NCBI GenBank assembly: GCA_020633895.1
Contig: JACKCT010000005.1
Coordinates: 1 to 64,000 of the forward strand
Origin: Deltaproteobacteria bacterium
GTDB taxonomy: Bacteria > Lernaellota > Lernaellaia > JACKCT01
DNA: 64,000 bases
Direction: 5' to 3'
The translations under genes and the position numbers were made by a program. This document shows positions 13,545 to 60,696 of this stretch, in pieces. The notes under the pieces are model-generated. The model was not told where the DNA came from, ran no database searches, and was given only the letters and a program-made list of their open reading frames with translations. Numbering within the stretch: the stretch's first letter is position 1; every line of letters begins with the position of its first letter.

Positions 13545-14126
13545 ATGTCGATCTCGCTCGGCCTGGTCGCGGCGTGCGTCGCCGGCCTGGTCGCGATGTC
13601 GCTGGCGTGCGGACCGGAAGAGGAGCCCGCGACCGTAACGGTGTCCGAGGAGTCGGACCGGGACGGCCTGGATTCCACCGATCCGGAGCCGACCTGCGAC
13701 TCGACGATGACGCTGTATGCCTCGGCCTGTCGCTTGGAGACGGGGGACTGGTCCACCCTGGACGCCCTGGAGGACTGTCGGGAAGGCGCGGACGCCTTCT
13801 GGGAGTGTCTTTTTGCCTGCGCCGACGGCTCGTCCGTGGAATGCGAGGACCTGGGCACGTGCGCGGTGGATTGCCCGGACGCGCCTTGGGAGGACGGCGA
13901 CGGGGACGACGATGACGCCGATCTCCCCTTGGACGACGATACCGATGACGACACGGCCGACGACGACACCGAGGCCGTGAGCTGCGAATGTGAATGCGTT
14001 TGCGACATCGGATCCTCCCATGTGGACTGCGAGGACGCCGCCGCCTGCGGCGACTGCTCCTCCGAATGCCAACGTCTCTGCCCGGCCCTGGGCGGAACAT
14101 TCGTGTCGGCCGACGGCGATTGCTGA
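13545..14126 (+). CDS. Small Cys-rich acidic lipoprotein with poly-Asp tract
   Basis: The ATG at 13545 gives MSISLGLVAACVAGLVAMSLACG (lipobox). About 24 Cys sit in CxC/CxxC patterns, and a central tract reads …DGDGDDDDADLPLDDDTDDDTADDDTE…. GC3 bias is strong on this strand. The opposite-strand ORFs (13389..14165 and 13475..16597) are Arg/Gly-rich junk. Confidence 0.5.
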   Translation: MSISLGLVAACVAGLVAMSLACGPEEEPATVTVSEESDRDGLDSTDPEPTCDSTMTLYASACRLETGDWSTLDALEDCREGADAFWECLFACADGSSVECEDLGTCAVDCPDAPWEDGDGDDDDADLPLDDDTDDDTADDDTEAVSCECECVCDIGSSHVDCEDAAACGDCSSECQRLCPALGGTFVSADGDC

Positions 14127-14374
14127 CATCTTCCGGAACCGGAACGCCGTTGCCCGGTGTCCCATCGATCGTCCGGGCCCGAATTTCCCGTCCGGGCCGA
14201 CACCCTACCCAAGGCGCATCGCAAATCGTAAGATCGGGCGCGATCAAGGAGCGGAATTTGCGCAAATTTGCATTTGAAAGTGCCCCGGCGAGCCGGGGAC
14301 GTCGCCCGTCTCGTCCCGAATCGAACAACGCCGATGGGGAACGCCGCGTCTTTCGGACGTGGTGGATCCCGGTG

Positions 14375-16129
14375 ATGGCGGCGGTGTTGCTCCTTTCCGG
14401 GTGCGCGACCCATCGCCCCATGACCTCCTCGGAGCTGGACACGTTGCGGTCCATGACCGGACTGAACGACGAAGTGCGCCGCCGGGAGATCTATTACGAA
14501 TACCTGCTGGCCGAAAACGCGCTGATCAACGGCGAGTTCGACGACGCCCGCGTCCACTACGAACGCATCGTCTTTTTGGACGACGAGCGCCCCGACGCCC
14601 ATCGCACCCTGGCTCGCCTGCAGGTTCACCAGGGGGATTTGGACGCGGCGCTGCGCCACTCGCGCCGGGCCTACGAGTTGGATCCGGACGACCAGGAAAA
14701 CTCCAACCTGTTGGCCAGCCTGTTTTCGTCCACCGGCCAATTGGACGACGCCATCGCGATCTACCGCGAGGTTCTCGCCAAGCATCCCCAGGACACGGAT
14801 ACGGCCACGCAGCTTGCCGGCCTGCTGATGCTCAAAAAGGACACTGAGGGCGCCCGCGAGGTCCTGGAAAACGTTATCAGCTACGATCCGCACAACCCGG
14901 CGGCGCTGTTTGAACTGGGGCGCATCGCGCTGTTGGAGAAGGACTGCGACACCGCGCGGCCGTATCTGTACAAGGCGCTGACCGCGAACCCGAACCTGGA
15001 TCGGGCGGAGATCGCGCTGGGCTCGTGCGCCGAGTTGGAAGGCGACGAGGAGCGGGCGATCCGCCACTACGAGCGGGCGCTCAAGTTGGCGCCGGACAAC
15101 ACGGTCCTTCGCTCCCACCTGGTCCGGATGCACCTGCGAGGCAACCGCCTGGAAGACGCGTCGCGGGAGAACGAGCGCCTCAAGTTCTTCCAATTCGACG
15201 AGCAGGATATCCGCATGACCCGCGGCGTGATCTACTACCAGCAAGGCCGGTTTGACGAGGCGCTGGTGGAGTTCAACCTGGTGCTCGGCGGCAACGAGGA
15301 CAACGACCGCGCCCTCTACCTGCGCGGGCTGACGCAGACGCGGCTGTCCCAGTTCGACAAGGCGATGGAGTCTTACGAAGCCATCGACAAGAACGACGAG
15401 TATTACGTCGACGCGCTGGCGGCGCGGGCGTCGTTGCTGCGTCGGTTGGGCAAGTTCGAGGAGGCGGCGGACCTGCTGCGCAAGGCCCTCAAAGTCACCC
15501 CCGACGACCCCTACCTGATGCGTACCCTGGCGATCGTGACCGCCGACCTGGGCAAGCTCAAGGAAGCCATCGGCATCATGGAAGACGCCATGAAGATCGC
15601 GCCCGAGGACTTCAACCTGCATTACAGCCTGGCGAATATCTACGAGCGGGCGGGGCAGTGGAAGAAGGGCGTGGAGATCATGGAGGAGGTCTTGGCAAAA
15701 GACCCTGAAAATGCCGACGCCCTCAATTTCATCGGCTACACCTTGGCCGAACGGGGCCTGGAACTCGACCGGGCCGAGAAACTGCTCAAGAAGGCGACCG
15801 AACTGCGGCCCACCGACGGGTTCATCATGGACTCCTACGGCTGGCTGCTCTACCAAAAAGGTCGCTATCAGGAGGCGGTGAAAGTGCTGGAAGCGGCGTT
15901 TCGCCTGGTGCCCGACGAGCCGGTGATGGCCGACCACGTGGGCGACGCCTACCGCGCCCTGGGCGACGAGAACACGGCGCTGCATTACTACACCCGGGCC
16001 CTGGAACTGCATCCCGAGGCGGACCTGATCGAACCCCTGCGACGCAAGGTGATTGAGCTTGGCGGCAACCCGGACGAGGTCAAAACCACGCCGGACACGG
16101 ACGACGATGACGACGACGCGATCGAATAA
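14375..16129 (+). CDS. TPR-repeat lipoprotein
   Basis: At least 12 tetratricopeptide repeats (…AIAIYREVLAKHPQDTDTATQLAGLL…, …HYERALKLAPDNTVLRSHL…). The N-terminus MAAVLLLSGC is lipobox-like. Start uncertain between ATG 14375 and GTG 14372. Supersedes the 1040-aa antisense ORF 13475..16597. Confidence 0.8.
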   Translation: MAAVLLLSGCATHRPMTSSELDTLRSMTGLNDEVRRREIYYEYLLAENALINGEFDDARVHYERIVFLDDERPDAHRTLARLQVHQGDLDAALRHSRRAYELDPDDQENSNLLASLFSSTGQLDDAIAIYREVLAKHPQDTDTATQLAGLLMLKKDTEGAREVLENVISYDPHNPAALFELGRIALLEKDCDTARPYLYKALTANPNLDRAEIALGSCAELEGDEERAIRHYERALKLAPDNTVLRSHLVRMHLRGNRLEDASRENERLKFFQFDEQDIRMTRGVIYYQQGRFDEALVEFNLVLGGNEDNDRALYLRGLTQTRLSQFDKAMESYEAIDKNDEYYVDALAARASLLRRLGKFEEAADLLRKALKVTPDDPYLMRTLAIVTADLGKLKEAIGIMEDAMKIAPEDFNLHYSLANIYERAGQWKKGVEIMEEVLAKDPENADALNFIGYTLAERGLELDRAEKLLKKATELRPTDGFIMDSYGWLLYQKGRYQEAVKVLEAAFRLVPDEPVMADHVGDAYRALGDENTALHYYTRALELHPEADLIEPLRRKVIELGGNPDEVKTTPDTDDDDDDAIE

Positions 16130-22206: not shown

Positions 22207-23664
22207 TTACGGCGCCGGGGTATAGCCTCCCGCATTGGGCGAGGCGATGAACTCGGCGGCGAACTCATGGTTCGGGTCGAAGGCGACGGTCCTGGCGTTG
22301 GTCCAGTCGCTCGCCCAGACGGTTCCCTCGGCGGCGAAATACCACAGGTCCGCCACCCAGAACGCGCCCGCGATGGTCAACGGGTCGTCCGTTCCCTTGA
22401 CCCAGGCGTTGTTGTCCTGCGTGTCGAAGACCCACACCGATCCGCTGAAGTTGTCGCCCACGTAGGCCAGTCCGTTGCCGTCGATCGCGATGGGCCCCGG
22501 AGCGCTGCCCACCTCGACGGTGTCGTCGACGGTGTCGTCGGACAGATCGATCATGTCCACCTTGCCCGTGGCCTCGCCGTAGTCGCCGGTTTCCACCACG
22601 TAGAGGTAGTCTTCGTTCGGACCCAGCGCCACGCTGCCCGGATTGATCTGGGACAGTTCGATGGCGCCCACCGACGCCTTGGAGCCGGACAGGTCCACCA
22701 CCGCCAGCTTGCCGGGGGAGGCGTAGCCGAAGGTGTTCGAGTCATAGCCCGTACAGGCCACGTACACCTTGTCGCCCGTCTTCGCGAAATTGGCCGGAAC
22801 GCACTTCTCGGGCAGGGCGACGGTTTCGGCCGTCTCGGCGTTCAGGTCGTAGATCGTCAGATCGTTGGACAGGTTGCCGGTCACGTACATCAGGTCGTTT
22901 TCGATGAACAGATCCCACGCGGCGGCCACGCCGGTCAGCGTTATCGTCTCCACGCTCGGACCGTTCGGATCGATGACCGAGACCAAGCTGTCGGGCGCGG
23001 TGGAGTTGAGGACATAGACTTTGCCTTCGTAGGTGAAGGCGGCGTTGGGAACAGTGAACGAGACCGGGGCGAGGCCGGCGAAGTAGTCGGAGGCGACCAG
23101 GCCCGTGTCCGCGTCAAAGGCCGCCAGCGTGCCGGCGACGGCGTCATAGAGGAACACATCCGGCCCGACGAACACATCGAACGACGCCGAGATCGTGTTT
23201 TTGGCGATGTCCAACAACACGGTGATCGTCGCGCTGCCCGGTCCTTCGGCCCGCAATTGGTGGGCATCGGTGACGGAGACGACGCTGTCGTCGGAGGTGA
23301 GGAACACGAAATTCACCTCGTCGGTTTCCGTATCGTCTTCCAGCACGGCGACCGCCCCGATGTCCCGATCGTCGCCGCCGAGGGTCATGCCGTAGACATC
23401 GGTCGGCACCTTGATCGCCTTGGCGTCGGGCAGCTCCGCCGTGTCGTCGTCATCGTCGTCGTCACCGGTGTCGTCGTCACCGGTGTCGTCATCGCCGGTG
23501 TCGTCGTCGGCCGTGTCGTCATCGTCGGAGTCGGTATCGTCGTCGGAGTCGTAGTACTTGTTGGTCACGTCCTTTTCGCTGCAGCCGGATAGAATCGCGG
23601 CCGAGATCGCCAAGATCAAGAACAGAACCAGGAACGAAAATTGAGGCACCCGGGAAATGGACAT
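22207..23664 (-). CDS. Lipoprotein: poly-Asp linker plus beta-propeller (YVTN/NHL-like) domain
   Basis: MSISRVPQFSFLVLFLILAISAAILSGC (lipobox). The linker reads …DSDDDTDSDDDDTADDDTGDDDTGDDDTGDDDDDDDT…. It is followed by repeated …YVTGNLSNDLTIYDL… and …LYVVETGDYGEATGKVDMIDL… blades. An AAGGAGGG SD precedes the ATG. Confidence 0.7.
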   Translation of the reverse strand: MSISRVPQFSFLVLFLILAISAAILSGCSEKDVTNKYYDSDDDTDSDDDDTADDDTGDDDTGDDDTGDDDDDDDTAELPDAKAIKVPTDVYGMTLGGDDRDIGAVAVLEDDTETDEVNFVFLTSDDSVVSVTDAHQLRAEGPGSATITVLLDIAKNTISASFDVFVGPDVFLYDAVAGTLAAFDADTGLVASDYFAGLAPVSFTVPNAAFTYEGKVYVLNSTAPDSLVSVIDPNGPSVETITLTGVAAAWDLFIENDLMYVTGNLSNDLTIYDLNAETAETVALPEKCVPANFAKTGDKVYVACTGYDSNTFGYASPGKLAVVDLSGSKASVGAIELSQINPGSVALGPNEDYLYVVETGDYGEATGKVDMIDLSDDTVDDTVEVGSAPGPIAIDGNGLAYVGDNFSGSVWVFDTQDNNAWVKGTDDPLTIAGAFWVADLWYFAAEGTVWASDWTNARTVAFDPNHEFAAEFIASPNAGGYTPAP

Positions 23665-24203: not shown

Positions 24204-25604
24204 TCAGAGCCGAATCGGCAAAAACACGTAGCGCGCCAGGAACAACGCCGCCAGCGCCCAGGCCAGGGGATGCACCTCCCGCGCCTTGCCGGCGGCGGTT
24301 TTGACGAGGGGATAGGCGACGAAGCCCGCCGAGAATCCCGTGGCGATGGAAAAGGTCAGGGGCATGGCGATGATGGTGACGAAGGCGGGGAAGCCCTCGG
24401 TGACGTCGTCCCACGCGATCTGGCGCACGGTGCGCAGCATCAGGAAGCCGACCAGAATCAGCGCCGGGGCGGTCACGGGCCGCAGGTAAATCTCCGGGTT
24501 GAGCGGCGAAGGCACCGACGCGCCGAACATCGTCACCAACGGCGAGAAAAACAGCGCCAGCAGGAACAGCCCCGCCGTCACCACGCTCGCGAATCCGGTG
24601 CGCCCGCCTTCCGAGACCCCCGCCGCGGACTCGATGTAGCTGGTCACGGTGCTCGTGCCGGCGATGGACCCGAAAACGGTACCCAATGCGTCGGCGGTCA
24701 GGGCCCGCGTTGCACGGGGGAGGCGGCCGTCACGCAAAAAACCGCCTTGTCCCGCCACGCCGATCAGCGTGCCGATGGTGTCGAACATGTCGACGAAGAG
24801 CATCATCAGGATCGGCGCGATCAGGGGAAACACCAGCGCGTCGTTGATGCGCAGTTTGGCGAAGGCGCTCGGCGAGGGGGGCGTCGAGATCACGCCGCCG
24901 AATTCCACGATGCCCAGGGGGATGCCCAGCAGCCCCGTGGCCACGATGCCCAGGAAAATCGCCCCGCGCACCCGCCGCGCCATGAGGATTGCCGTGATCG
25001 CCAAACCGACCAGCGCCAGCAGCGTCGGCGCGGACGTCACCGACCCGAGTTGCACGAACGTCACGGGATGATCGGCGATCAGCCCCGCTTCTTCCAATCC
25101 GATGAACGCGATGAACAATCCGATGCCTCCGGCGATTCCATGCTTGAGGCATTCGGGCACCGCGTGGATGATCATCTCCCGCACCTTCAGGAACGTCAGC
25201 GCGGTGAATACGAAGCCGGAGATGAACACCATGCCCAGGGCGATCTGCCAGGGTGCGACACCGCCGGCCACCTCGCCTCGGGCTTGCAGACCGGCGATGA
25301 AATTGCAGACTTCGAAGGAGAAGAAGGCGTTCAGGCCCATGCCCGGCGCCAGGGCGATGGGATAGCGGGCCAGTACGGCCATCAGCAGCGTGGCGAACGC
25401 CGAGGCCACGCACGTCGCGGTCATCACGGCGCCGAAGTTCATGCGTGCGCCGGCGGCGTTGGAAAGGATGGCCGGGTTGACGACGATGATATAGGCCATC
25501 GTCATGAAGGTGGTGGCCCCGGCGATCGTTTCGGTGCGCAGATTCGTACCGGCCTCGGCAAAGCCGAAGTATTCGTCGATGCGCGAGAGAACCTTGGATG
25601 TCAT
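24204..25604 (-). CDS. NCS2-family nucleobase permease (AzgA/PbuG-like adenine/guanine/hypoxanthine transporter)
   Basis: 466 aa, about 13 TM helices, with conserved …TTFMTMAYIIVVNP… and …GLNAFF… motifs of the AzgA subfamily. Confidence 0.88.
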   Translation of the reverse strand: MTSKVLSRIDEYFGFAEAGTNLRTETIAGATTFMTMAYIIVVNPAILSNAAGARMNFGAVMTATCVASAFATLLMAVLARYPIALAPGMGLNAFFSFEVCNFIAGLQARGEVAGGVAPWQIALGMVFISGFVFTALTFLKVREMIIHAVPECLKHGIAGGIGLFIAFIGLEEAGLIADHPVTFVQLGSVTSAPTLLALVGLAITAILMARRVRGAIFLGIVATGLLGIPLGIVEFGGVISTPPSPSAFAKLRINDALVFPLIAPILMMLFVDMFDTIGTLIGVAGQGGFLRDGRLPRATRALTADALGTVFGSIAGTSTVTSYIESAAGVSEGGRTGFASVVTAGLFLLALFFSPLVTMFGASVPSPLNPEIYLRPVTAPALILVGFLMLRTVRQIAWDDVTEGFPAFVTIIAMPLTFSIATGFSAGFVAYPLVKTAAGKAREVHPLAWALAALFLARYVFLPIRL

Positions 25605-25711
25605 GGAGTGCCTCGCGGCATGATTTGCCCGAGTACGCTATCATTAAAGGCGCGGTCGTGTCAGCAAGGCACGGGCGCGGCGGGAACCCGGACGGGGCGC
25701 TTGAACGGACA

Positions 25712-27577
25712 ATGAACGACAACCCCACCCCCCGAACCTCACGCGGGCGTCGCGCGATCCACGCGGTCATTGCCGTGGTCCTGGCGTTGTTCGCCCTGGA
25801 GACCGGCGCGCGCCTGCTCGAACGCGCCCGGCCGGTGCCGCCGGTGGACGCCCGCAGCCCCTTGGAATTTCAGCAGATCCCCGACCAGGACACGCACACG
25901 ATTGAGGACGGGCGGATCTACATCGATCTGGCCCTGTGGCGCGGCCAGCAGCTCGCCCAATCCAAGGGCCTGGACGAATTCCGGATTGTCGTCCTGGGCG
26001 GCAGCGCGGCGGCGGGGATGGGCGTGGCGCCCCCGGCGGCTTTCGCGCGGGTGATGGAACGATTGCTCAACCAGGCCGCCCCAGGGCGTCTGGTGCGGGT
26101 GATCAATCTGTCGCGTGTCGGCTACGCCAGTCCCCAATTGGCGCGCATCCTGGAGATGATCGGACCGGTGATCCAGCCGGACCTGGTGCTGACCGTGATG
26201 GGCAACAACGAATTCCTGGACATGGTCCGGGGACGCACCCCGGAGGAGATCGACGCCCTGCTCCTGGCGCGAGAGGTGGAGCGGCGTTCGGCCCTGACGC
26301 GCCTGTTTCGTCCTCGGCAGCGCCTGACGCCCATTCCGCCGGGCATGGACACCGCGCCCCGGCCCCTCGACCCGTCCCAACGGCCCGAGGTGGCGGACTA
26401 TGTGGTGCGTCGCTTGGGTCGTTCGGTGGCGAATATGAAGCAGTGGGCCCGGCGAAACGGGGCGGATCTGATGGTCGCCACCGTTCCGGCCAACAAGCTC
26501 TACGGCGACGGTTCGCGGGACTGGGCGTTCGCGGTCGACGGCGACGACTTACCTCGGGAGTTTCAACGGGCGCGGTGGGCGCTGCGCTACGAGGCGCCGG
26601 AAAAGGCGATCGAGGCGGTGGCGGGTTTTGGCGGTGACGATCTGCGCGGCATGGGCGCCCGGTGGGTGACGGCCATGGCGCTTCATCAGCTCGGCCGGGA
26701 CGACGAAGCCCTGCCGATGGTGCGTCAGTTGGAGCGGGACTTGTACACGCTCGCGGTTGTCGGCAAGGGCGGAGCGGGGCTGCCCAATCTCTACGGTCGC
26801 GTGCTCGGTTCGTTGGCGAACGACTTCGGCGAGGCGGTCGACCTGGACCGCGCCGCCGAGCCCATCGTGCGAAATCTCCCGTCGGAAGGCGCCACGCCGA
26901 CTTTGTATTTCCGCGTGGGGGCGTTTTGGTATTACGCGGGAGAGGGGGATAAAGCCGCGCCGTTGCTCGATTATGCCGAGGAAACGGATCGCACCGTCTC
27001 CCGAGCCGGAGCGATTATTAACGAAGCGCTACGCCGCGCCGCTGCCGACACCGGGGCGAGGTTCTACGACCTGGCCGGGGATCTGGCCGAGTATTCCCCC
27101 CTGGGCATTCCCGGGTTCGATGCCTTTCTCGACTATTGCCACTACAACGTGCGAGGAAACCGGATCGCGGGCCGTCTGCTGGCCGGGGAAATCGCCCGAA
27201 GGTACGGTTTCGACGGCCCCATGCCCTCGGTGGGCGATCTGTTGGCCGAGGAGGCGCGCCTACGAGCCGGGCGGGAGACGGATCTGCCGGATTTGGCCTG
27301 GTGGGCCGGGGCGGATTATGACGTACTGCGTCTGGTGGATGAGAAGATCGACGACACCCCGGCGTATTTCGAGGCCTTGGAGGCCCGCATCGCCCGGGAG
27401 GGCCCCACACCCCTCTCGCTGACCTTTCTGGGTAACTGGAAAACCTACCACCCCGCCACGCAGGACGAGGCCACCCTCGAGGCCGCCGAAAAGCTCTATC
27501 GTCGGGCCTTGGAACTCGACCCGAAATTCGAGGCCGCCCGGGCCGATCTGGACCGCGTCGCCTGGATTCGACAATAG
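25712..27577 (+). CDS. Large membrane-anchored SGNH-hydrolase-like protein with C-terminal helical/TPR-like region
   Basis: The ATG at 25712 gives an N-terminal TM helix. SGNH-like blocks follow: …IVVLGGSAAAG…, …LTVMGNNEF…, …DYCHYNVRGN…. A long alpha-helical extension then ends in a TPR-like …LYRRALELDPKFEAARADL…. Confidence 0.6.
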   Translation: MNDNPTPRTSRGRRAIHAVIAVVLALFALETGARLLERARPVPPVDARSPLEFQQIPDQDTHTIEDGRIYIDLALWRGQQLAQSKGLDEFRIVVLGGSAAAGMGVAPPAAFARVMERLLNQAAPGRLVRVINLSRVGYASPQLARILEMIGPVIQPDLVLTVMGNNEFLDMVRGRTPEEIDALLLAREVERRSALTRLFRPRQRLTPIPPGMDTAPRPLDPSQRPEVADYVVRRLGRSVANMKQWARRNGADLMVATVPANKLYGDGSRDWAFAVDGDDLPREFQRARWALRYEAPEKAIEAVAGFGGDDLRGMGARWVTAMALHQLGRDDEALPMVRQLERDLYTLAVVGKGGAGLPNLYGRVLGSLANDFGEAVDLDRAAEPIVRNLPSEGATPTLYFRVGAFWYYAGEGDKAAPLLDYAEETDRTVSRAGAIINEALRRAAADTGARFYDLAGDLAEYSPLGIPGFDAFLDYCHYNVRGNRIAGRLLAGEIARRYGFDGPMPSVGDLLAEEARLRAGRETDLPDLAWWAGADYDVLRLVDEKIDDTPAYFEALEARIAREGPTPLSLTFLGNWKTYHPATQDEATLEAAEKLYRRALELDPKFEAARADLDRVAWIRQ

Positions 27578-27722
27578 CGAATTTCCCCGCGATCAAAGGT
27601 CAAGAAGCACGGGAAAACCGCCGATGTATGAGCGCTTAGGCGGCTTGACTTCATAAGGCCTAGAGCCTACCGTCAAATCCGTTTTGAACCCAAATTGTGC
27701 GTGACGGCAAAGGCCCGAATCG

Positions 27723-29657
27723 ATGTACAACGAGTTTTTCGGCTTCAAAAAGCTACCGTTTTCGATCACGCCCGACCCCAATTTTGTGTACATGTCCTCG
27801 TCGCACCGAGAGGCGCTGGCGCAGATGATGTACGGGGTGCAGGAGCGCAAGTGCCTGATGGTGGTCTCCGGCGAGGTGGGCGTGGGCAAAACCACGATGA
27901 TCTTCACCCTGCTGTCCCACCTGGAAAAGGACGCCGAGACGTGCATCATCTTCGACACGCACGTCGATTCAAAAAGCCTGTATCGCTATATCTTCGCCGA
28001 CTTCAAGATCAAGGAAAAACCCGAGGACCGGGCCGACGCGACGATCATCCTGCGCGAGCACCTGACGCAACGCCTCCAGGAAGGCAAGCAGACCCTGCTG
28101 ATCCTGGACGAGGCCCACGCCTTGTCCGACGAGATCCTCATGGAGGTCGTCTTCCTGACCAACATGGAGACGATGCAGAACAAGCTGCTGCAGATCATCC
28201 TGGTCGGCCAGACGGAGATCAACCAGGTCCTCACCTCCCACAAATTCCGCCAGCTTCGTCAGCGCATCAATCTGCGCACCGAGATCCGCCCCCTGACCTT
28301 CGACGACACGCGCCATTACATCTACCACCGCGTGCGCGAGGCGGGCCGGGAGGATCCGGAAAACCTGTTCACCGAAGAGTCCATCGCGCTGATCTATCGG
28401 TTCAGTAAGGGCCTGCCGCGCATGATCAACACCATCTGCGACAACTCGCTCTTGGTGGCTTACGCGCGCAAGATCCGCCACGTCACGCCGGAACTGGTCA
28501 AGGAAACGTACGCGGACCTGATGGAAATCGAACAGCGGGCCGAGGGCCCGGGGCCGGAAGCGGCGCAGGCCGCGGCGGCGGACGAGTCGTCCTTCGAGGC
28601 TCCGCCCATGCCCACCGTCGACTCGGAAGGCAATCAGGTGCTCTCCGAGGAAGTCGTCAACCAGACGCAGACCGACGACGAGCAGGTACGCATCGTGCGT
28701 CGCGTGGTGCGCACTCCCGACGGGCGCGAGGTGGTCAAGAAGGTCCGCCAGATCCGGCGCGTCAAACGCAAGCTCGACGATCTGGCCAACGAGGCCTTAA
28801 GCGCCGGTTCGACGGCCGCCGCCGCTTCCAAGAGCGGGCGCATCTCGTCGCTGCCGACGCTCATCCCGCTGCCCGAGGATCTGCCCGAGGTGGGCATTAC
28901 GCCCAACGCCAGCGAGGAATTGCTCGTCGCCATGCGCCACGACAACCCGGCGGCGGTGCGCCAGTATCACCTGCTCTGGAACCGCATCGAGGCGATCAAC
29001 CAAAACGAGGAATGCCGCGCGTTCATCGTCAGCAGTTCCCTGCCCAAGGAAGGCAAGACCATCACCAGCATCAACCTGGCGGCCACCATCGCCCAGGCGC
29101 CGGAGATGCGCGTGCTGCTCATCGACGCGGATCTGCACATGCCTCGCGTGCATGAATACCTGGGGTTGCCCATGCCCGAGACGGGGCTGGCCAATATCCT
29201 GGAAGGCAAGGCCGAGCTGAAGGAATGCCTGATGCGCTACGAGCTGCCGCGCCTGTATTACCTGCCGTCCGGCCAGGTGGAAGGCATGCCCACCGAGCTT
29301 TTGGTCGGCAAGGCGATGGAAAAGCTGCTCGACGAGGTCAAAGGGTACTTTCACTTCATCGTCGTCGACTCGCCGCCGATTGTGCCCATCGCCGATACGG
29401 TGGGGCTGGCGGCCATGGTGGACGGCACGGTGCTGGTGTGCCGCGCCCGCCAGACCAGCAGCAAGGTGCTGATGCAGGCCGCGGAGGATCTCAACGACCG
29501 GCGCATCGTCGGCATCGTGCTCAACGCGTTGGACTTCCGTTTGGCCGGCGGTTATCGCCACGGCTACGGCAAGTACGGCTACGGCAAATACGGCTATGGA
29601 TACGGTTACGGCTACGGGCGACGCAAAGCGGCCGCCGCCGAGGCCAAGACCGGTTAG
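27723..29657 (+). CDS. Fusion protein: N-terminal ExeA/GspA-like AAA ATPase (PEP-CTERM-type EPS 'EpsG-like') and C-terminal BY-kinase (polysaccharide co-polymerase tyrosine kinase) domain with Tyr/Gly-rich tail
   Basis: N-terminus: …VVSGEVGVGKTTM… (Walker A) and …LLILDEAH… (Walker B), typical of the ExeA/AAA_22 family. C-terminus: …SSSLPKEGKTIT… (BY-kinase Walker A), …VLLIDADLHMP… (Walker A', with R→H), …FIVVDSPP… (Walker B), and a tail …YRHGYGKYGYGKYGYGYGYGYG. No TM segment is present. Confidence 0.75.
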   Translation: MYNEFFGFKKLPFSITPDPNFVYMSSSHREALAQMMYGVQERKCLMVVSGEVGVGKTTMIFTLLSHLEKDAETCIIFDTHVDSKSLYRYIFADFKIKEKPEDRADATIILREHLTQRLQEGKQTLLILDEAHALSDEILMEVVFLTNMETMQNKLLQIILVGQTEINQVLTSHKFRQLRQRINLRTEIRPLTFDDTRHYIYHRVREAGREDPENLFTEESIALIYRFSKGLPRMINTICDNSLLVAYARKIRHVTPELVKETYADLMEIEQRAEGPGPEAAQAAAADESSFEAPPMPTVDSEGNQVLSEEVVNQTQTDDEQVRIVRRVVRTPDGREVVKKVRQIRRVKRKLDDLANEALSAGSTAAAASKSGRISSLPTLIPLPEDLPEVGITPNASEELLVAMRHDNPAAVRQYHLLWNRIEAINQNEECRAFIVSSSLPKEGKTITSINLAATIAQAPEMRVLLIDADLHMPRVHEYLGLPMPETGLANILEGKAELKECLMRYELPRLYYLPSGQVEGMPTELLVGKAMEKLLDEVKGYFHFIVVDSPPIVPIADTVGLAAMVDGTVLVCRARQTSSKVLMQAAEDLNDRRIVGIVLNALDFRLAGGYRHGYGKYGYGKYGYGYGYGYGRRKAAAAEAKTG

Positions 29658-29718
29658 CGTCGGCGCCGCTTCGATTGCAAGCGGCCTAGCGACGGACTTC
29701 GATGAGGGAGACGACGAC

Positions 29719-30498
29719 ATGACCAGACGCATCGCGTTCATCCTGGTCGCCTTGATCGCGCTGGGTCTTTTCGCCGGGAGCGCCGCCGCTCAGGTGATTT
29801 CGGGCGAGCAGTTCATCGTCGTGCGATACTACGCCGGCGACGTGCTGGTCAAAACCATCACCGTCACGCCCGACGGCCGCTCGTTGCAGACCGTGCCCAA
29901 CGCGGGCCTGGTGGGCAGCATCGACACGGCCAAGGCCTATCTGGTCGAGGGCAAGATCGAAACGCCCATCGGCTTGGGCGGAGGCTCGACCGGCACGGGC
30001 GGAACGGGCCTGGAGTCGCGCGACGCCTATCTGATCGGCCCGGAAGATCGGCTGGCGATCAACGTCTGGGAAAACGAGCAGCTCACCCGCGACGTCCCGG
30101 TGCGCCCCGACGGGATGATCTCCATGCCGTTGCTGGGCGATATCCACGCCGCCGGCATGACGACCACGGCGCTCAAGAACTACATGACCGAGCAGCTCAA
30201 GCGCTACATCGAAAACCCGGTCGTGACCGTCACCGTCGCGGAGATCAATAGCTACAAGGCTTACGTCCAAGGCAACGTCAACAGCCCGGGCGAGTACAAG
30301 ATTTCCGGCCAGACCACCGTCACCCAGGTCATCAGCCTCGCCGGCGGCTTCAACGAATTCGCCGACCAGGGCAACATCCGCATTCTGCGTCCGGCCAAGG
30401 CGGGCAAGCAGACGATCAAGGTCAACTACAAGCGGATTCTCAAAGGCAAGGACGACGATGAGCGCATCCTTCCCGGCGACACCGTCGTGGTTCCCTAA
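29719..30498 (+). CDS. Polysaccharide export protein, short Wza/EpsA-like (Poly_export + SLBB)
   Basis: The ATG at 29719 with a GGGAG SD gives signal peptide MTRRIAFILVALIALGLFAGSAAA. The …IGPEDRLAINVWENEQLTRDVPVRPDGMISMPLLGDIHAAGMTTTALKNYMT… block is the poly-export domain. The protein lacks the long C-terminal helix of full-length Wza. Confidence 0.8.
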   Translation: MTRRIAFILVALIALGLFAGSAAAQVISGEQFIVVRYYAGDVLVKTITVTPDGRSLQTVPNAGLVGSIDTAKAYLVEGKIETPIGLGGGSTGTGGTGLESRDAYLIGPEDRLAINVWENEQLTRDVPVRPDGMISMPLLGDIHAAGMTTTALKNYMTEQLKRYIENPVVTVTVAEINSYKAYVQGNVNSPGEYKISGQTTVTQVISLAGGFNEFADQGNIRILRPAKAGKQTIKVNYKRILKGKDDDERILPGDTVVVP

Positions 30499-30518
30499 GG
30501 CAAAGGTGGGAGTCCGTA

Positions 30519-31808
30519 TTGCGTTGGATGATTGACCGAGCGGGGCCGGGCACCTTGCGTGTCCTGATGTTGACGGCGGCGCTGCTGGTCGTCGCGCTCC
30601 GTCCGTCCGTCGCCCACGCCACCAAGCTGACTATCTATCCCTTGCTGGCAACCTGGTACGAATACAACGACAACCTGTTGGCCACCGCGGAAGAGTCGGA
30701 CGAGGAAAAGCTCGCCGATTCGTCGATCACCGTTCAGCCCGCCCTGCGCGTGAGGTACGAGTCCGTGCGCACCGAGGCCGAGATCGGCGGCCAGGCGGCG
30801 TTCCAGTGGTTTTTCAACGAGCAGTCGGAAAACGGCCTGCCCGATTTGGTGGAAGGCCACGCGCTCTACGGCGTCTGGCTCACGCCGTCGACCCGTATCG
30901 AGGCCTCCGACGATCTGGGCTTTTTCTTCGACAGCCGCGACACCATCGGAACGCAGTCCCAGGAACTGCTGCAAGTGCAGACGGCGTCCATCACGAACAC
31001 CATCGGCCTGGGCCTGACGCACATCTTCGATCTGCGCAATCAGGTCGCGGGAAAGTACGAGTTCGTGACCAACGAATACGAGGACGAAGATCTGGCCGAC
31101 GTGGTCACGCACCGGCCGACGATCGAGTACGAGCACCGCGTCAGCCCGGTGCATACGATCGTGGTGTTCGGCCGATTCACGCGGAACATCTTCGATCCCG
31201 AGTTCGATTTTCTGCGGCGCATCTGGGATTCGGACGCGCGCATGGACGAGGAGTTCCCCACGGAGCTTCGCACCGACAACGACTTCGACACCTACGTCCC
31301 GGGCGTCGGCTTGGACTACCGCATGACCGCGACGCTCTCCTTTTCGGTGCGGTCGGGCATGATCGTGCCGGCGCGGCTGGTGGACAACAGTTACCAGCTT
31401 GACGAGTTGGAGTGGTATCAGGTCGTCTCGGCGGAGAAAAACTGGCAGATGGTGCGTCTGGGTGTGGGCTACGAGCGCGACTTGGAGCCGGCCAGCGGCA
31501 TCAACACGGCGGTGCTCTCCCAGAACTACAACGCGGATCTCACGGAAGTCTGGACCCGCAAATTCGAGACGAGCCAGAACGCGTACTTCAACCGCGCCAC
31601 CCAACTGGACGGTGATTTCGACACCTACGCCGGGGCGGTCGCGGCCAACTACTACATCGCGCCGTGGATCGGCATCGGCGCGGGCTACCAGCACATCCGG
31701 CAGTATTCCGACCTGGGCGCCGACGACACCGAGACCATCACCAACCGCGCCTTGTTCACGCTCGAAATCTCCACTCCCCAGGCCGATTCCCTCAGCCTCG
31801 ATCTTTAA
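30519..31808 (+). CDS. Putative outer-membrane beta-barrel protein of the EPS export module
   Basis: Signal peptide (…LLVVALRPSVAHA). Alternating amphipathic beta-strand pattern with abundant Tyr/Asn/Asp/Gly. Positioned directly after the Wza-like and kinase genes, as EpsL-type barrels are in PEP-CTERM loci. Fold not verified. Confidence 0.5.
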   Translation: MRWMIDRAGPGTLRVLMLTAALLVVALRPSVAHATKLTIYPLLATWYEYNDNLLATAEESDEEKLADSSITVQPALRVRYESVRTEAEIGGQAAFQWFFNEQSENGLPDLVEGHALYGVWLTPSTRIEASDDLGFFFDSRDTIGTQSQELLQVQTASITNTIGLGLTHIFDLRNQVAGKYEFVTNEYEDEDLADVVTHRPTIEYEHRVSPVHTIVVFGRFTRNIFDPEFDFLRRIWDSDARMDEEFPTELRTDNDFDTYVPGVGLDYRMTATLSFSVRSGMIVPARLVDNSYQLDELEWYQVVSAEKNWQMVRLGVGYERDLEPASGINTAVLSQNYNADLTEVWTRKFETSQNAYFNRATQLDGDFDTYAGAVAANYYIAPWIGIGAGYQHIRQYSDLGADDTETITNRALFTLEISTPQADSLSLDL

Positions 31809-31868
31809 CGTTCCAACAAGCAAAACGGTGACAATCGAACAGAGCGGGTAGGTGCGTCTCGGCACTTA

Positions 31869-31969
31869 TCGTTGTCATCCCGAACGAAGTGAGGGATCTC
31901 TCGTGTGATGAATCGACACGTTTTCGAACATCGAACGAGAGGTTCCTCGTTTCACTCGGAATGACAACG
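31869..31969. repeat. Imperfect 35-bp inverted repeat element (TCGTTGTCATCCCGAACGAAGTGAGGGATCTCTCG … CGAGAGGTTCCTCGTTTCACTCGGAATGACAACGA)
   Basis: Arms about 80 % complementary around a 31-nt centre. The arm motif CCGAACGAAGTGAGGG resembles the TIR of the 18016-18228 element. Lies between the convergent barrel gene and pckA. Confidence 0.55.
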
Positions 31970-31997
31970 ATTTGCGCGGGAACGATACCTCGCCACG

Positions 31998-32022
31998 AAA
32001 AACGCGGGCCTTTCGACCCGCG
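31998..32022 (-). terminator. Rho-independent terminator of pckA
   Basis: Minus-strand hairpin CGCGGG-TCGAAAGG-CCCGCG followed by TTTTTCG, 33 nt downstream of the pckA stop. Confidence 0.65.
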
Positions 32023-32054
32023 TCCGATTGTTCTTCGTTGTTGGCGGCGAAGCG

Positions 32055-33665
<1,611 letters not shown>

Positions 33666-37243: not shown

Positions 37244-38254
37244 TTACTCGGTCGCGGCCTCGACATCCCCTTCGGCCTCGGCGGTCGCCTCGGCGACGGA
37301 CTCGGAGGTGACGGTCACGCCCAGGCTCCCCATCTCGCCGGTCGGCACCGTCGTGTCGATAAGCAGACGCGGGTCCACGGGGCGCAGCGGGTCGGGATCG
37401 ATGTCGCCGGGACGGCGCTCCTGCAGCAGGCTTTGGCGCGTCGGCTTCATGCGGATTTCCACGCGACGATTTTCCTGGCGACCGTCGGCGGTGTCGTTCG
37501 AGGCGACCGGGCGCGTGTCGCCCATGGCCGCCGCGCTGTAGCGCGTTTCGTCGCCGGACGCGAGCGCGAGCATGCGTTTGACGACCGACGAGGAACGGGC
37601 CGCGGACAGGGACCAGTTGTCGGCCATGGAACCGCCTTCGGGCGGGCGATTGTCGGTATGCCCCTCGACCGAAACGCTCAGGTCATAGACGGACGCCGCT
37701 TCGGCGATTTTCGCCAGAAGAGGATTGGCGTCGGGGCTGACCTCCGTGTCGCCGGGCCCGAAGGTCAGCGACTCGGGCAGACGCACCCGAATGCCTTCCC
37801 GATCCGCCGAGAAGACGATCTTTTCGTCAATCCCGAAGCGGTTGGTCAGGTCCACCAGGCTCACCCAGGTCTCATCCTCGCCCACACGCTCGCGACGCAC
37901 TTCCTGGACCAGTTGGCCCAGGGGCGTGTTGCCGGTGTTGCGAACGTCGGTAAGGTCCGACGTGGTGGTGTCCGGCTCGGCGGAGAGATTACGGGCGACC
38001 TGGAAGAGCAACTGGATGCTGGGAATGAACGTCGGATTGGCCGGCACCGGCTCCTCGGGCTGGATGGCAGCGTAGACCAGCTCCGAGGCGGCCTGGGAAA
38101 TAGTCCGGGCTTTCTGGTCGTCCAGGGACGACATGGTCAGCAACAAGACGAAGAAGGTGAGCATCAGCGTGATCAGATCGCTGAAGGTCAGCATCCATCC
38201 CAACGGATCCGGGCCGTCGGCGGGGACGATTTTGACGTTCTTGTTCTTGCTCAT
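37244..38254 (-). CDS. motB: MotB-like stator subunit (OmpA-like peptidoglycan-binding C-domain), channel Asp present
   Basis: The N-terminal TM …WMLTFSDLITLMLTFFVLL… carries the conserved Asp. The C-terminal …HTDNRPP…NWSLSAARSSSVVKRML…NRRVEIRM is an OmpA/MotB domain. Confidence 0.8.
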   Translation of the reverse strand: MSKNKNVKIVPADGPDPLGWMLTFSDLITLMLTFFVLLLTMSSLDDQKARTISQAASELVYAAIQPEEPVPANPTFIPSIQLLFQVARNLSAEPDTTTSDLTDVRNTGNTPLGQLVQEVRRERVGEDETWVSLVDLTNRFGIDEKIVFSADREGIRVRLPESLTFGPGDTEVSPDANPLLAKIAEAASVYDLSVSVEGHTDNRPPEGGSMADNWSLSAARSSSVVKRMLALASGDETRYSAAAMGDTRPVASNDTADGRQENRRVEIRMKPTRQSLLQERRPGDIDPDPLRPVDPRLLIDTTVPTGEMGSLGVTVTSESVAEATAEAEGDVEAATE

Positions 38255-39087
38255 CGACCTTCGTCCGGGACCGCTTCGGGCGCCTTGCTGGGCCCTCGGA
38301 AGGGGTTGCGCAAGCCGAAGGCGGTCCAGAAATCCCGACGTTGGGTAGCGGCCTTGGCGGCCATCGCCTGACGTCGGCCCTCGCGGATGTTGTTGAGGGT
38401 GACGACGACGCGCCGGTTGCTGGTGGTCAGCAGGTTCGGGCTGTTGATGTCCACTTGTTCGTCGTTGGTGCCCTTGGCGGTGACGCGCAGTTTCTCCGCC
38501 TTGACCCCGGCCGCCATCAGCGCCCGCGCCGCCGCGATGGAGCGATTCATGGACAGATCCCAGGGCGAGGCCGAGCCCGGCTCGTCCGCCTCGGCATAGC
38601 CGGTCAGCTCGATGCTCAGGCCGTATTCCCGCGCCGGGGCCGTGACGACTTCCAGCAGATCCAAGGCCGATTCGGACAGGGTGTCGCTGCCCGGCGCGAA
38701 CATCAGCGCCTCGGGAAAGGTGATGTTGATGTCATAGTCGTTGGGCACGGCGAGCATACGCACGCGCATCGCCTTGGCTTCCATCGCCGAGTGGATCTTG
38801 CGGTAGACCGGGTCGTGAATGACCGACAGGGTCTTGATCCATTCGTTGACGTTTTCCAAGGCGTCGTCGCTGGTGAACTTGAGCAGGCTGTATTGGAAGG
38901 GCATGCCGCCCTCGACGATGCCGAAGGTGCCGACCAGGGAGTTGAGGGCCTTGTGCTTGCGCGCCTCGTCGATCACCGCGATGGAGTTGAGCAGAATGAA
39001 AAAGCACAGCAGCAACAGGAACAGCGAAGTCACCAGAACGATGTTGGGGTCGCTCTCCCGTTCCTCGTAGATCTTTTTCTTGCCCAT
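38251..39087 (-). CDS. MotB-like stator paralogue lacking the conserved channel aspartate
   Basis: TM …IVLVTSLFLLLLCFFILLNSIAV… has no Asp. OmpA-like C-domain (…NRSIAAARALMAAGV…NRRVVVTL). The ATGA at 38251-38254 overlaps the downstream motB. Confidence 0.7.
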   Translation of the reverse strand: MGKKKIYEERESDPNIVLVTSLFLLLLCFFILLNSIAVIDEARKHKALNSLVGTFGIVEGGMPFQYSLLKFTSDDALENVNEWIKTLSVIHDPVYRKIHSAMEAKAMRVRMLAVPNDYDINITFPEALMFAPGSDTLSESALDLLEVVTAPAREYGLSIELTGYAEADEPGSASPWDLSMNRSIAAARALMAAGVKAEKLRVTAKGTNDEQVDINSPNLLTTSNRRVVVTLNNIREGRRQAMAAKAATQRRDFWTAFGLRNPFRGPSKAPEAVPDEGR

Positions 39088-39099
39088 GGCGCGCTCCGG

Positions 39100-39867
39100 C
39101 TATTTGTCGAACTGGGACTTGCGCATATTCGGCGGCAACAGGCTGTTGAGGCGCGACTCGATGACGCGGGGGTTGTCGCCTTTGGAGATGGATTCGACGC
39201 CCACCATGATGATGGTGTTGTAGAGGACCTCGGAGGAGCTGCGCGTGCGCAGCTTGCCGGCCAGGGGGTTGAAGACCACGTTGGCCAGCATGGCGCCGTA
39301 AAACGTCGTCAACAGGGCGACGGCCATGGCGGGACCGATGGCCGACGGGTCGGCCATGTTCTGGAGCATCTGCACCAGGCCGATGAGCGTTCCGATCATG
39401 CCCATGGCCGGGGAGATGGTGCCGGCGGTTTGGAGGATATCGGCGCCTTTCTTGTGCCGGTCGGCCAGCGCCTCGATCTCCGATTCCATCTGGGAGACGA
39501 TCGCCTCGGTTTCCGAACCGTCCACGGCCATCATCAGGCCCTTCTTGAGGAAGGGGTCCTTCACGTCCTTGCCGGCTTCCTCCAGGGCGAGGATGCCTTC
39601 GGTGCGCACGAGCTGGCCGAACTTGACCAGGCGATCGACGTATTCGTCGGGAGCGAGATCCCGATTGAAAAAGCCTTTGCTGACCACCTTCGCCAGGCCG
39701 GCCACGTCCTTGAGCGGATAGGAGACCAGCACCACCATCAGCGTACCCAGGACGGTGATCAGCACCGACGGCACGTCAATGAAAATCGCCAGCGAGCCGC
39801 CCAGCAGCATCGCGGTGGCCACCAGGCCGAAGGTTCCGACCATACCGATTAGAGTGGCGATATCCAT
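39100..39867 (-). CDS. motA: MotA/TolQ/ExbB-family proton-channel stator subunit
   Basis: 255 aa, 4 TM helices, with conserved …GTISPAMGMIGTLIGLVQML… and …ALLTTFYGAMLANVVFNPLAGKL…. Confidence 0.85.
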   Translation of the reverse strand: MDIATLIGMVGTFGLVATAMLLGGSLAIFIDVPSVLITVLGTLMVVLVSYPLKDVAGLAKVVSKGFFNRDLAPDEYVDRLVKFGQLVRTEGILALEEAGKDVKDPFLKKGLMMAVDGSETEAIVSQMESEIEALADRHKKGADILQTAGTISPAMGMIGTLIGLVQMLQNMADPSAIGPAMAVALLTTFYGAMLANVVFNPLAGKLRTRSSSEVLYNTIIMVGVESISKGDNPRVIESRLNSLLPPNMRKSQFDK

Positions 39868-46485: not shown

Positions 46486-46555
46486 GCGCTTTAAGCACTG
46501 CGCCTTGAACACTGAGCTTTGAACACCGCGCTTTGAACACAGCGCCTTGGGAGTA
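46486..46555 (+). promoter_or_regulatory. Iteron-like array: 14-nt direct repeat GCGC(T/C)TTGAACAC(N) ×4.5, ending in the RBS of the downstream secreted-protein gene
   Basis: GCGCTTTAAGCACT / GCGCCTTGAACACT / GAGCTTTGAACACC / GCGCTTTGAACACA / GCGCCTTGGGAGTA at exact 14-nt period. The last unit contains the GGGAG SD 8 nt before the ATG at 46562. Confidence 0.55.
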
Positions 46556-46561
46556 CAACGA

Positions 46562-54096: not shown

Positions 54097-54098
54097 GG

Positions 54099-60419: not shown

Positions 60420-60696
60420 CCGAGTTATCCCATGCAGATTTTGGATCAAACGACACTTTAACGACAGGTCGACCGCCGATCAACAAAGCCTCTTCGGCCG
60501 CCCCGAGGATTCTTGACGAGGCCCCCCGACCCTCCGTAGCCTGCGAGCGACGCAACATCCCCGGCAAATTCCCGCTTGCGTCCCGAGGGCGAATCGGATA
60601 GAAACGCTTTCGGGATTTGAACGAGCGTTCAAAATCGGGTAGAATTGCAGGCGAGCGACGACATCGCGCGCAACCGGAATATCGAAGGAGGGCGAG

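Follow-up and report, generated by a model that had tools for sequence, protein, structure and literature searches.

We analyzed a window of 64,000 nucleotides (positions 1 to 64,000 of contig JACKCT010000005.1, assembly GCA_020633895.1) from a bacterium of the phylum Lernaellota. On its forward strand, at 27723-29657, the window encodes a protein of 644 aa in which an ExeA/TIGR03015-type AAA+ ATPase is fused to a bacterial tyrosine kinase (BY-kinase). The fusion is real and not a frameshift or assembly artefact, because about 19 independent sequence clusters share the same uninterrupted architecture and the catalytic motifs are invariant. [quoted passage not shown] We consider it likely that this compact three-gene operon serves regulation and export in a Wzx/Wzy-type exopolysaccharide (EPS) pathway of the exosortase (XrtA/PEP-CTERM) lineage, in which the ATPase and the kinase constitute one unit and the polysaccharide co-polymerase (PCP) is encoded elsewhere.

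From the N- to the C-terminus, the protein consists of the ATPase domain, a linker, the BY-kinase domain and a Tyr-rich tail. The initial annotation had described a single soluble open reading frame (ORF) of 644 aa with the motifs GVGKTT, LILDEAH, SLPKEGKT, LLIDADLH and FIVVDSPP and a C-terminal Tyr cluster, and all of these are present. A Kyte-Doolittle scan found no segment hydrophobic enough for a transmembrane (TM) helix, which points to a soluble protein. The G+C content at third codon positions (0.88) is like that of other genes in the window. The AlphaFold2 (AF2) model has a mean predicted local distance difference test (pLDDT) score of 71 and contains two confident domains, aa 1-267 and ~378-601. 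In the same model the linker is largely disordered, as is the Tyr tail.

A word-indexed homologue search covering 5.8 billion proteins returned one identical protein, from an NCBI metagenome-assembled genome, and another 18 full-length clusters sharing this architecture (578-653 aa, 47-65% identity) and coming from NCBI, JGI, ENA and Logan assemblies. One of the clusters belongs to Candidatus Lernaella stagnicola (phylum Lernaellota). Database labels for this family are generic: 'general secretion pathway protein A' is one of them, and 'polysaccharide biosynthesis tyrosine autokinase' is the other. Residue invariance was judged on an alignment of 16 fusions that are 45-67% identical to the window protein, and the catalytic residues of both NTPase domains are invariant in all 16. 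The initial annotation had allowed for two separate genes joined by a frameshift; the uninterrupted ORF in the identical protein and in the 18 further clusters refutes this. The sole close half-length relative examined (P0127) was rejected as evidence of a split gene, being a fragment at the end of a 2.2-kb contig.

The ATPase domain (aa 1-267; 27723-28523, forward strand) was assigned by its matches to TIGR03015 and to Pfam AAA_22 (E-value 6e-21). The TIGR03015 match is full-length, spanning 267 of the 269 profile positions (1-267), and in agreement with the initial annotation it identifies the N-terminal half as an ExeA/GspA-type AAA core. Its score (251 bits, E-value 1e-74) lies under the equivalog cutoff of 324.5, and so does that of the ATPase from a genuine exosortase locus, L042 (296.9 bits). 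The Walker A motif (G50-EVGVGKTT) and the Walker B motif (LILD129-E130-AH) are both in place; in the 16 aligned fusions G50-x-x-G-x-G-K-T-T and D129-E130 are invariant. A profile of the domain searched against PDB identified MuB (2.9e-6) and TnsC (8e-5) as the nearest solved structures, and Foldseek also found MuB (TM-score 0.73). These nearest structural relatives are ring- or filament-forming AAA+ adaptors. No solved structure of the ExeA/GspA cytoplasmic domain was found in PDB.

The BY-kinase catalytic domain (aa ~378-611; 28854-29555, forward strand) was defined by TIGR01007, by PDB sequence matches and by Foldseek. Its TIGR01007 match (aa ~424-611) scores 134.6 bits, above the cutoff of 108.05, and TIGR03018 scores 153.7 bits. 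The Wzc, Etk, EpsG and TIGR01005 models aligned by their kinase ends only, and the Pfam match is to AAA_31/CbiA. Among PDB sequences, VpsO (3.7e-27) and Etk (3e-23) rank first, followed by Wzc, CapA-CapB chimeras and BceF; VpsO, Etk and Wzc together lie between 1e-27 and 1e-20, and the BY-kinase matches as a whole span E-values from 1e-27 to 1e-16, whereas MinD reaches just 4e-7. Using Foldseek, the C-terminal domain was matched to the kinase domains of Wzc, VpsO and CapAB (3la6, 6u1q, 4jmp) with an E-value of 1e-13 and target TM-scores of 0.71-0.86; the pLDDT of the domain is about 65-89. Walker A (E443-G-K445-T), Walker A' (D468-A-D470-L) and Walker B (D549-S-P-P) are present, and E443-G-K445, D468-x-D470 and D549-SPP are invariant in 16/16 aligned fusions. 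The residue after DxDL is His instead of Arg in the window subclade. Since the TIGR01007 score is above the cutoff and the PDB matches are far ahead of MinD, the C-terminal half is, by family, motifs and predicted fold, a genuine BY-kinase domain and not a generic MinD/ParA-like P-loop protein, the alternative that had initially been considered. The domain is followed by the Tyr cluster YRHGYGKYGYGKYGYGYGYGYG and a basic end (29556-29654, forward strand), delimited by Tyr count and family alignment. Nine Tyr residues fall within the final 34 aa of the window fusion as a (YG)n tail. Across the fusion family the Tyr-Gly repeats are kept, mostly with 6-9 Tyr per final 34 aa (4 in P0018 and P0019), and Y615 is invariant.

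Directly downstream, at 29719-30498 on the forward strand, is the gene for a periplasmic Class-3 (D1D2) OPX protein of 259 aa. Its ORF may open at 29596; the likely start is the ATG at 29719, 8 nt downstream of a GAGGGAG ribosome-binding site. The product has a Sec signal peptide, an N-terminal extension of ~75 aa, a Poly_export domain (9e-26) and one SLBB domain (1.6e-12). It stops one residue past the SLBB_2 match, carries no Wza_C or GfcC domain and, because it ends right after SLBB, has no Wza_C helix. The nearest models are TIGR03027 (141.7 bits, below its cutoff of 180) and EpsY (116 bits). The signal is of the signal-peptidase-I type; the orthologues in loci L001, L004 and L005 have a lipobox. 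Around half of Class-3 OPX proteins are lipoproteins (PMC9603273). The window OPX ends in PGDTVVVP. The motif PGDT[IV]VVP occurs at or near the C-terminus of all examined exosortase-type and window-family OPX proteins (L006 6532-7125, L042 8002-8616, L045 3019-3660). The L045 protein alone appends QSFF to it, which resembles the porin-binding Phe-Phe tail of WzaB (PMC12819527).

The third gene (30519-31808, forward strand) encodes a 429-aa outer-membrane beta-barrel, the partner of the OPX, recognized by its signal peptide and AF2 model. The model (pLDDT 66, from a shallow alignment) shows a signal helix and then ~18 long beta-strands. The protein matches no Pfam family. Against TIGR03016 it scores 27.3 bits (cutoff 90.85) in its N-terminal part only, and the barrels of L006 and L042 are also below this cutoff. 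Alignment of the window-family barrel with the L006/L042 barrels by hhalign (probability 91.7%, E-value 8e-7, 216 columns) supports homology, and by profile similarity the barrel is a distant relative of the TIGR03016 family. Together, the OPX and the barrel match the composite Class-3 OPX/porin translocon already described in 2022-2026 (PMC9603273, PMC9601211, PMC12819527). In such systems both the OPX/barrel pairing and the OPX-PCP contact are experimentally established (PMC9601211, PMC9603273, PMC12819527). The window proteins share with M. xanthus WzaX/S/B plus WzpX/S/B and EpsY/EpsX and with V. cholerae VpsN/VpsM the Poly_export and SLBB domains without Wza_C and an ~18-stranded barrel of ~430 aa (PMC9603273, PMC9601211); the OPX differs in its ~75-aa N-terminal extension and in its VVVP end in place of Phe-Phe (PMC12819527).

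The order fusion, OPX, barrel (~420-430 aa) is invariant in eight loci, namely the window and its sister loci L001, L003, L004, L005, L008, L009 and L010. Where genes were called, the flanks of these triads are mostly unrelated and mostly housekeeping, with similar neighbours shared by L001, L004 and L005. Directly downstream of the window triad lie pckA and then ppa. No sigma-70 promoter-like site was found within 27400-32200, and no terminator-like site between the stop at 31808 and pckA. In L001 the triad is directly followed by a GDSL_2 gene (14015-15295, reverse strand). In the window itself there are three GDSL/SGNH-like paralogues (25598-27577, 55348-56808 and 56834-58291, all on the forward strand), one of them directly upstream of the fusion gene. 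These genes might be linked to O-acyl modification of the EPS.

To look for a PCP, we built a hidden Markov model (HMM) from 120 exosortase-type PCPs, which scored two positive controls at >680 bits. Applied to stop-to-stop ORFs of at least 100 aa, it matched nothing in the 64-kb window and nothing in its seven sister loci. The top 120 matches of a PCP homology search are all close relatives of the query PCPs, those with an organism name coming from Terriglobales or other Acidobacteriia. All window genes except one dubious 142-aa ORF were compared with Pfam and/or NCBIfam, and no PCP, exosortase or EpsI was found among them. Exosortase and EpsI were likewise not found within ±10 kb in L001 and L003-L005; they do adjoin the distant fusion in L006 and the unfused genes in L042. 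Glycan genes are scattered in the window genome (priming glycosyltransferase (PGT), 119-1498; GT-C, 3960-7006; DegT, 60697), which makes a distant PCP plausible.

The origin of this arrangement can be traced through a recurrent cassette. In L042, where nothing is fused, EpsI and EpsH are followed, after other genes, by an OPX (204 aa), a 450-aa protein, a PCP (505 aa; TIGR03007, 258 bits), an ATPase (AAA_22, 322 aa; TIGR03015, 297 bits), a kinase (331 aa; TIGR01007, 140 bits), Bac_transf and a glycosyltransferase of family 2. L045, also unfused, has the same six-gene order. L006 is a complete exosortase locus with a distant fusion, P0130, and comprises EpsH, EpsI, a tetratricopeptide repeat (TPR) protein, an OPX (197 aa), a 447-aa protein, a Wzz+GNVR PCP (504 aa) and the fusion, with Bac_transf, glycosyltransferases and sigma-54 regulators downstream. 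The cassette OPX, barrel, PCP, ATPase, kinase, PGT thus recurs unfused in L042 and L045 and fused in L006. Loci with only an ExeA-like gene (L011-L039) were rejected as an unfused baseline since they have GspA-type or type II secretion system (T2SS) contexts without EPS genes, and L042 and L045 were used instead.

The window triad is built from the same families as this XrtA/PEP-CTERM cassette (L042, L045, L006; TIGR03027, TIGR03016-like, TIGR03007, TIGR03015, TIGR03018, PGT), at similar levels: its TIGR03015 score is 251 bits against 297 bits in L042, and its TIGR01007 score is 135 against 140 bits. The order ATPase then kinase, the PGDT[IV]VVP end of the OPX and the homologous barrel after the OPX are further likenesses. 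In contrast to the cassette, the window ATPase and kinase form one polypeptide and the fusion is placed first, whereas the PCP, PGT, exosortase and EpsI are outside the window-family neighbourhood. In addition, the window family has RxxHxxW in place of ExxRxxR and a basic linker motif in place of the 'IYDALKRAE' N-terminus of the kinase. In the window lineage (Lernaellota and relatives), the cassette is reduced and permuted to fusion-OPX-barrel, apart from the PCP, PGT and exosortase genes. As the initial annotation had stated, then, a short Wza-like exporter and a probable barrel follow the fusion (a Class-3 OPX and an ~18-stranded model), no Wzz/chain-length gene is adjacent (neither Pfam/NCBIfam nor the PCP HMM found one in the 64 kb), and the ATPase and the kinase are separate proteins in exosortase-type loci (L042, L045). 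The names it gave to the latter, 'EpsG-like ATPase' and 'EpsF-like kinase', were wrong, because NCBIfam gives the name EpsG to the kinase (TIGR03029) and EpsF to the chain-length determinant (TIGR03017). Its view that the system has no co-polymerase part stands insofar as no PCP is adjacent in the window; it does not follow from the fusion as such, because the fusions of L006 and L007 directly follow a normal Wzz/GNVR PCP (in L007, the fusion P0133 comes directly after a 510-aa GNVR PCP).

The fused architecture is rare. When 1.84 billion cluster representatives (50% identity) were scanned exhaustively with HMMER, fusions were confirmed in seven of them, and a pattern scan of 185,579 species genomes added at least three more full-length fusions. 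Two of the HMMER-scan fusions (P0012 and P0018) are of the window family; the distant ones (P0129, P0130, P0131, P0133 and P0135; 31-37% identity) all have the NCBIfam composition TIGR03015 plus TIGR01007/TIGR03018 (5/5). The remaining HMMER matches with two matching stretches are tandem double-ATPase proteins. Such tandem double-TIGR03015 proteins (P0128, P0132, P0136, P0141, P0148) represent another recurrent fusion with this ATPase. Among the distant fusions, P0131 and P0135 have the kinase Walker A lysine replaced (GEGTS, GDGRT) and lack the Tyr cluster; they are probably pseudokinase versions of the fusion.

In the unfused loci L042 and L045, the ATPase and kinase genes are adjacent with overlapping stop and start codons (ATGA). 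The L042 ATPase corresponds to aa 1-272 of P0130 (57% identity), and aa 1-318 of the L042 kinase correspond to aa 298-597. Given this colinearity, the fusion joins two adjacent, overlapping genes of the cassette. A neighbor-joining (NJ) tree built from ATPase domains does not unite the fused proteins: P0130 and P0133 fall with the unfused ATPase of L042, to which they are 55-57% identical, against just 33-35% identity to the window family. The ATPase half of the window family is itself 43-45% identical to several unfused ATPases, versus 33-39% to any distant fusion. Exosortase-type kinases (L042 12486-13481) open with an 'IYDALKRAE'-like motif and have an N-terminal extension of ~100 aa. The motif persists in P0130 (aa ~298-311) and P0133 (aa ~325-338) and is absent from the window family.

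The linker (aa ~268-377; 28524-28853, forward strand) is mostly disordered (AF2 pLDDT <60), and searched in isolation it has no Pfam match. Linkers of ~110-150 aa are conserved in the family and have no counterpart at the overlapping ATPase/kinase gene junction of unfused loci. The window linker contains a basic motif, VRIVRRVVRTPDGREVVKKVRQIRR (aa ~323-347), the family form of which is (E)EVRIVRR[IV]VxxPDGRxVxxKVRK[IV]R; a regular expression recovered it in 15 of the 16 core-family sequences, and it is absent from P0018 and P0019. AF2 places a weak, low-confidence three-strand beta-meander at aa 305-346 and, just ahead of the kinase core, gives aa 381-390 a pLDDT of ~80 amid disorder. One linker segment, LPTLIPLPEDLP (consensus LPxVxDLP), was considered as a built-in PCP-tail activator, being similar to the tail LP[IV]LGxLP of the L006 and L007 PCPs. 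This idea is no more than speculation. An HMM of 101 PCP tails recognizes no fusion linker (best -3.8 bits, E-value ~15), and the leading Leu-Pro is not conserved within the closest subfamily, which counts against mimicry of a PCP tail. A likeness between the linker (IVRRVV-RTPDGR) and the N-terminal extension of the family OPX (IVVRYY...TPDGR) was rejected as well (hhalign probability 2%).

The kinase half of the window family also differs at the ring contact. In CapB, ExxRxxR (E23, R26, R29) contacts E133 and R81 of the neighbouring octamer subunit, and the motif is present in nearly all BY-kinases, CpsD being the exception (PMC2422856). Where it is expected, helix alpha2 of the window kinase has R413-QY-H416-LL-W419, in the same register as E-AV-R-AL-R of Etk and 32 residues ahead of the Walker A lysine; the register was checked against Etk and over 25 sequences. 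Thus, E23/R26/R29 are not conserved (PMC2422856). RxxHxxW is found in all 16 core-family sequences, with P0018 (RxxHxxS) and P0019 (RxxRxxA) as outliers. ExxRxxR is retained in the unfused kinases of L042 and L043 and in the PCP-adjacent fusions P0130 and P0133.

Among known kinases, a polypeptide lacking a TM part is ordinary: kinases consisting of the catalytic domain only (CD-type) occur in Firmicutes and Myxococcus (PMC4007543). CD-type BY-kinases such as S. aureus CapB (with CapA) and B. subtilis PtkA (with TkmA) share with the window kinase solubility, the Walker A/A'/B motifs, the Tyr cluster and a CapAB-like sequence and fold. They differ in that the window kinase is N-terminally fused to an AAA+ ATPase and has no adjacent gene for a transmembrane activator domain (TAD); 230 of the 252 CD-type kinases are co-located with such a gene (PMC4007543). 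The PCP-2a proteins Wzc, Etk and VpsO include the best sequence matches of the kinase domain (VpsO and Etk, above), and VpsO has a short OPX and a barrel, VpsN/VpsM, as its partners (PMC9601211); unlike them, the window fusion has neither TM helices nor a periplasmic Wzz/GNVR domain, and its partner domain is a cytoplasmic ATPase. ExeA/GspA proteins share the N-terminal AAA_22-type ATPase with its 'LPF...PDP' lead-in and account for many of the next-best database matches. However, in ExeA a TM helix comes next and then a peptidoglycan-binding domain in the periplasm (PF01471 in many matches), whereas the window protein has a BY-kinase and its neighbours are EPS export genes and not those of a T2SS.

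In the explanation we prefer, the ATPase and the kinase would be one cytoplasmic unit docked under a PCP. They are repeatedly fused, they are overlapping neighbours when unfused, and the ATPase gene always lies between the PCP and kinase genes, and because of this we propose that they act together. The fusion of neighbouring genes also suggests that the ATPase of exosortase loci works together with the kinase. The fusion would fix the two activities at a 1:1 ratio and in the same place, and a PCP supplied from elsewhere in the genome would dock the kinase at the membrane and bridge to the OPX. ExeA of the Aeromonas ExeAB system promotes assembly of the outer-membrane secretin through peptidoglycan. 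Given the relationship to ExeA and to the MuB/TnsC adaptors, the AAA+ domain probably spends ATP on assembling or remodelling the complex of PCP, OPX and barrel that spans the envelope. By analogy with Wzc and CapAB, the kinase domains would trans-autophosphorylate on the disordered Tyr tail, and the phosphorylation cycle would gate polymerisation and export; CapAB is the source of the model of a ring with trans-autophosphorylation (PMC2422856).

Several observations weigh against this explanation. The expected partner is unseen: there is no PCP/TAD gene in the 64-kb window or, up to ±10 kb or as far as the contig reaches, around the seven sister loci, and those loci with precomputed Pfam matches have no annotated Wzz/GNVR within ±10 kb. 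Since ExxRxxR is replaced by RxxHxxW in the window family, this family may not build an octamer of the Wzc/CapB style in the usual manner. Two features important for WzaB (PMC12819527), a lipobox and a C-terminal Phe-Phe, are missing from the window OPX, and no Cys follows its signal peptide. The role assigned to the ATPase is drawn by analogy alone; in the full-text literature we found no experimental paper on TIGR03015-type ATPases and no paper joining PEP-CTERM, 'secretion ATPase' and exopolysaccharide. Finally, the apparent occurrence of at least two independent fusions (or fissions) is read from the polyphyly of fused proteins among the ATPases, and the NJ tree that shows it has no support values.

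It might be argued that the system is independent of a PCP altogether. In this case an AAA+ ring or filament would replace the PCP octamer as the kinase scaffold, and the fusion would regulate or energise the OPX and barrel without a Wzz-type co-polymerase. The lack of a PCP near the triad in 8/8 loci, in spite of its strict conservation, is in keeping with this, as are the loss of ExxRxxR in the window family only (PCP-adjacent fusions and unfused kinases retain it), the conserved family-specific basic motif of the linker, the oligomeric AAA+ adaptors among the nearest structural relatives of the ATPase and, in the AF2 model, the confidence at aa 381-390, which suggests a docked segment. However, it has been shown that a Class-3 OPX in the periplasm depends on a PCP as its bridge to the inner membrane (PMC9601211, PMC12819527), and such an OPX is out of reach of a soluble protein in the cytoplasm. 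Moreover, orphan CD-type kinases are believed to borrow a TAD whose gene lies elsewhere (PMC4007543), the scattered PGT (119-1498) and DegT (60697) genes make a distant PCP plausible, and the failure of the 101-PCP-tail profile to recognize the linker gives no sign of a built-in activator. We regard PCP independence as unlikely, if worth keeping in mind. More specifically, in Lernaellota and related uncultured lineages the BY-kinase could have been freed from the Wzz-type co-polymerase, with an ExeA-type AAA+ ring gathering the kinases into a PCP-less minimal export module. Such gathering, if true, would explain the loss of ExxRxxR, but we consider this scenario rather doubtful.

Other readings have less to recommend them. 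The kinase could mainly phosphorylate other substrates, such as the priming transferase or UDP-sugar dehydrogenase, and act on precursor supply, its linkage with export genes being only regulatory. BY-kinases do phosphorylate Ugd/CapO-type dehydrogenases and PGTs (PMC2422856, PMC4007543), and in the cassette a Bac_transf PGT comes directly after the kinase gene. In the window lineage, however, it is the OPX and barrel that have stayed adjacent and the PGT that has not, and this role, which we hold to be improbable as the main one, is compatible with the explanation preferred here and does not exclude it. A GspA/ExeA-like role in type II secretion or in pilus secretin assembly, with no link to polysaccharide, might be suggested by the JGI label 'general secretion pathway protein A' of several family members and by a cluster of pseudopilins and minor pilins at 49-55 kb of the window. 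Yet the fusion has neither a TM segment nor a peptidoglycan-binding domain (PF01471), its neighbours are always OPX and barrel and never GspB or a secretin, its best family match is the exosortase-associated TIGR03015, and genuine GspA-type loci (L011-L039) have no nearby EPS genes; we find this role very hard to credit. As to an artefact, with two genes run together through a frameshift in sequencing or assembly, or with a C-terminal half only of the MinD/ParA type, a single indel error could indeed fuse genes that overlap by ATGA. The possibility is next to negligible: the identical protein and the 18 clusters, from different assemblies, share a linker without equivalent at the gene junction, and the BY-kinase scores, Walker A', the DSPP Walker B and the Tyr cluster are all in place.

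Some other genes of the window deserve mention. The pilin-like cluster (49434-55093, reverse strand) comprises a 392-aa PilX_N protein, a 199-aa GspH/N_methyl pseudopilin and an unusually large protein of 1163 aa with an N-terminal prepilin methylation motif and fn3. Two lipoprotein-like ORFs (22207-23664, reverse strand, 485 aa; 46547-48724, forward strand, 725 aa) have a signal peptide followed by long poly-Asp stretches (DDDTxDDD repeats) and belong to no Pfam or NCBIfam family. A 711-aa TPR protein (13994-16129, forward strand) has PrsT (TIGR02917) as its best NCBIfam match, with 212 bits (under the cutoff of 312), and this may reflect generic TPR similarity. At 58320-60449 (reverse strand) a 709-aa protein without a Pfam family has a signal or TM segment at its N-terminus and another TM segment at aa 576-594. 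At 37244-39867 (reverse strand), two MotB/OmpA-like genes come after a MotA/PomA-like stator gene, so that one A-type subunit has two B-type partners.

In the full-text literature, we found no paper joining a BY-kinase with ExeA and none mentioning TIGR03015. Apart from a few orphans, a phylogenomic survey of BY-kinases describes just two architectures, TAD-CD and CD (PMC4007543). The ATPase is not discussed in the original PEP-CTERM paper, and the description of Lernaellota says nothing on EPS genes. The proposal of the initial annotation that this is an undescribed variant of polysaccharide export regulation thus holds for the architecture, on which no paper was found; it does not extend to a new principle, the triad being a rearranged subset of a recurrent cassette. 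If an AAA+ ring did take the place of the co-polymerase, the module would represent a new way for nucleotide hydrolysis and Tyr phosphorylation in the cytoplasm to be coupled to polysaccharide export at the outer membrane. That the ATPase and the kinase act as one unit is a testable hypothesis for the uncharacterised ATPase of a widespread environmental pathway of EPS and floc formation. The window lineage, in turn, is a natural case in which the kinase is away from a nearby PCP and its ring-contact motif has been rewritten, and it bears on how orphan BY-kinases are activated and oligomerise.

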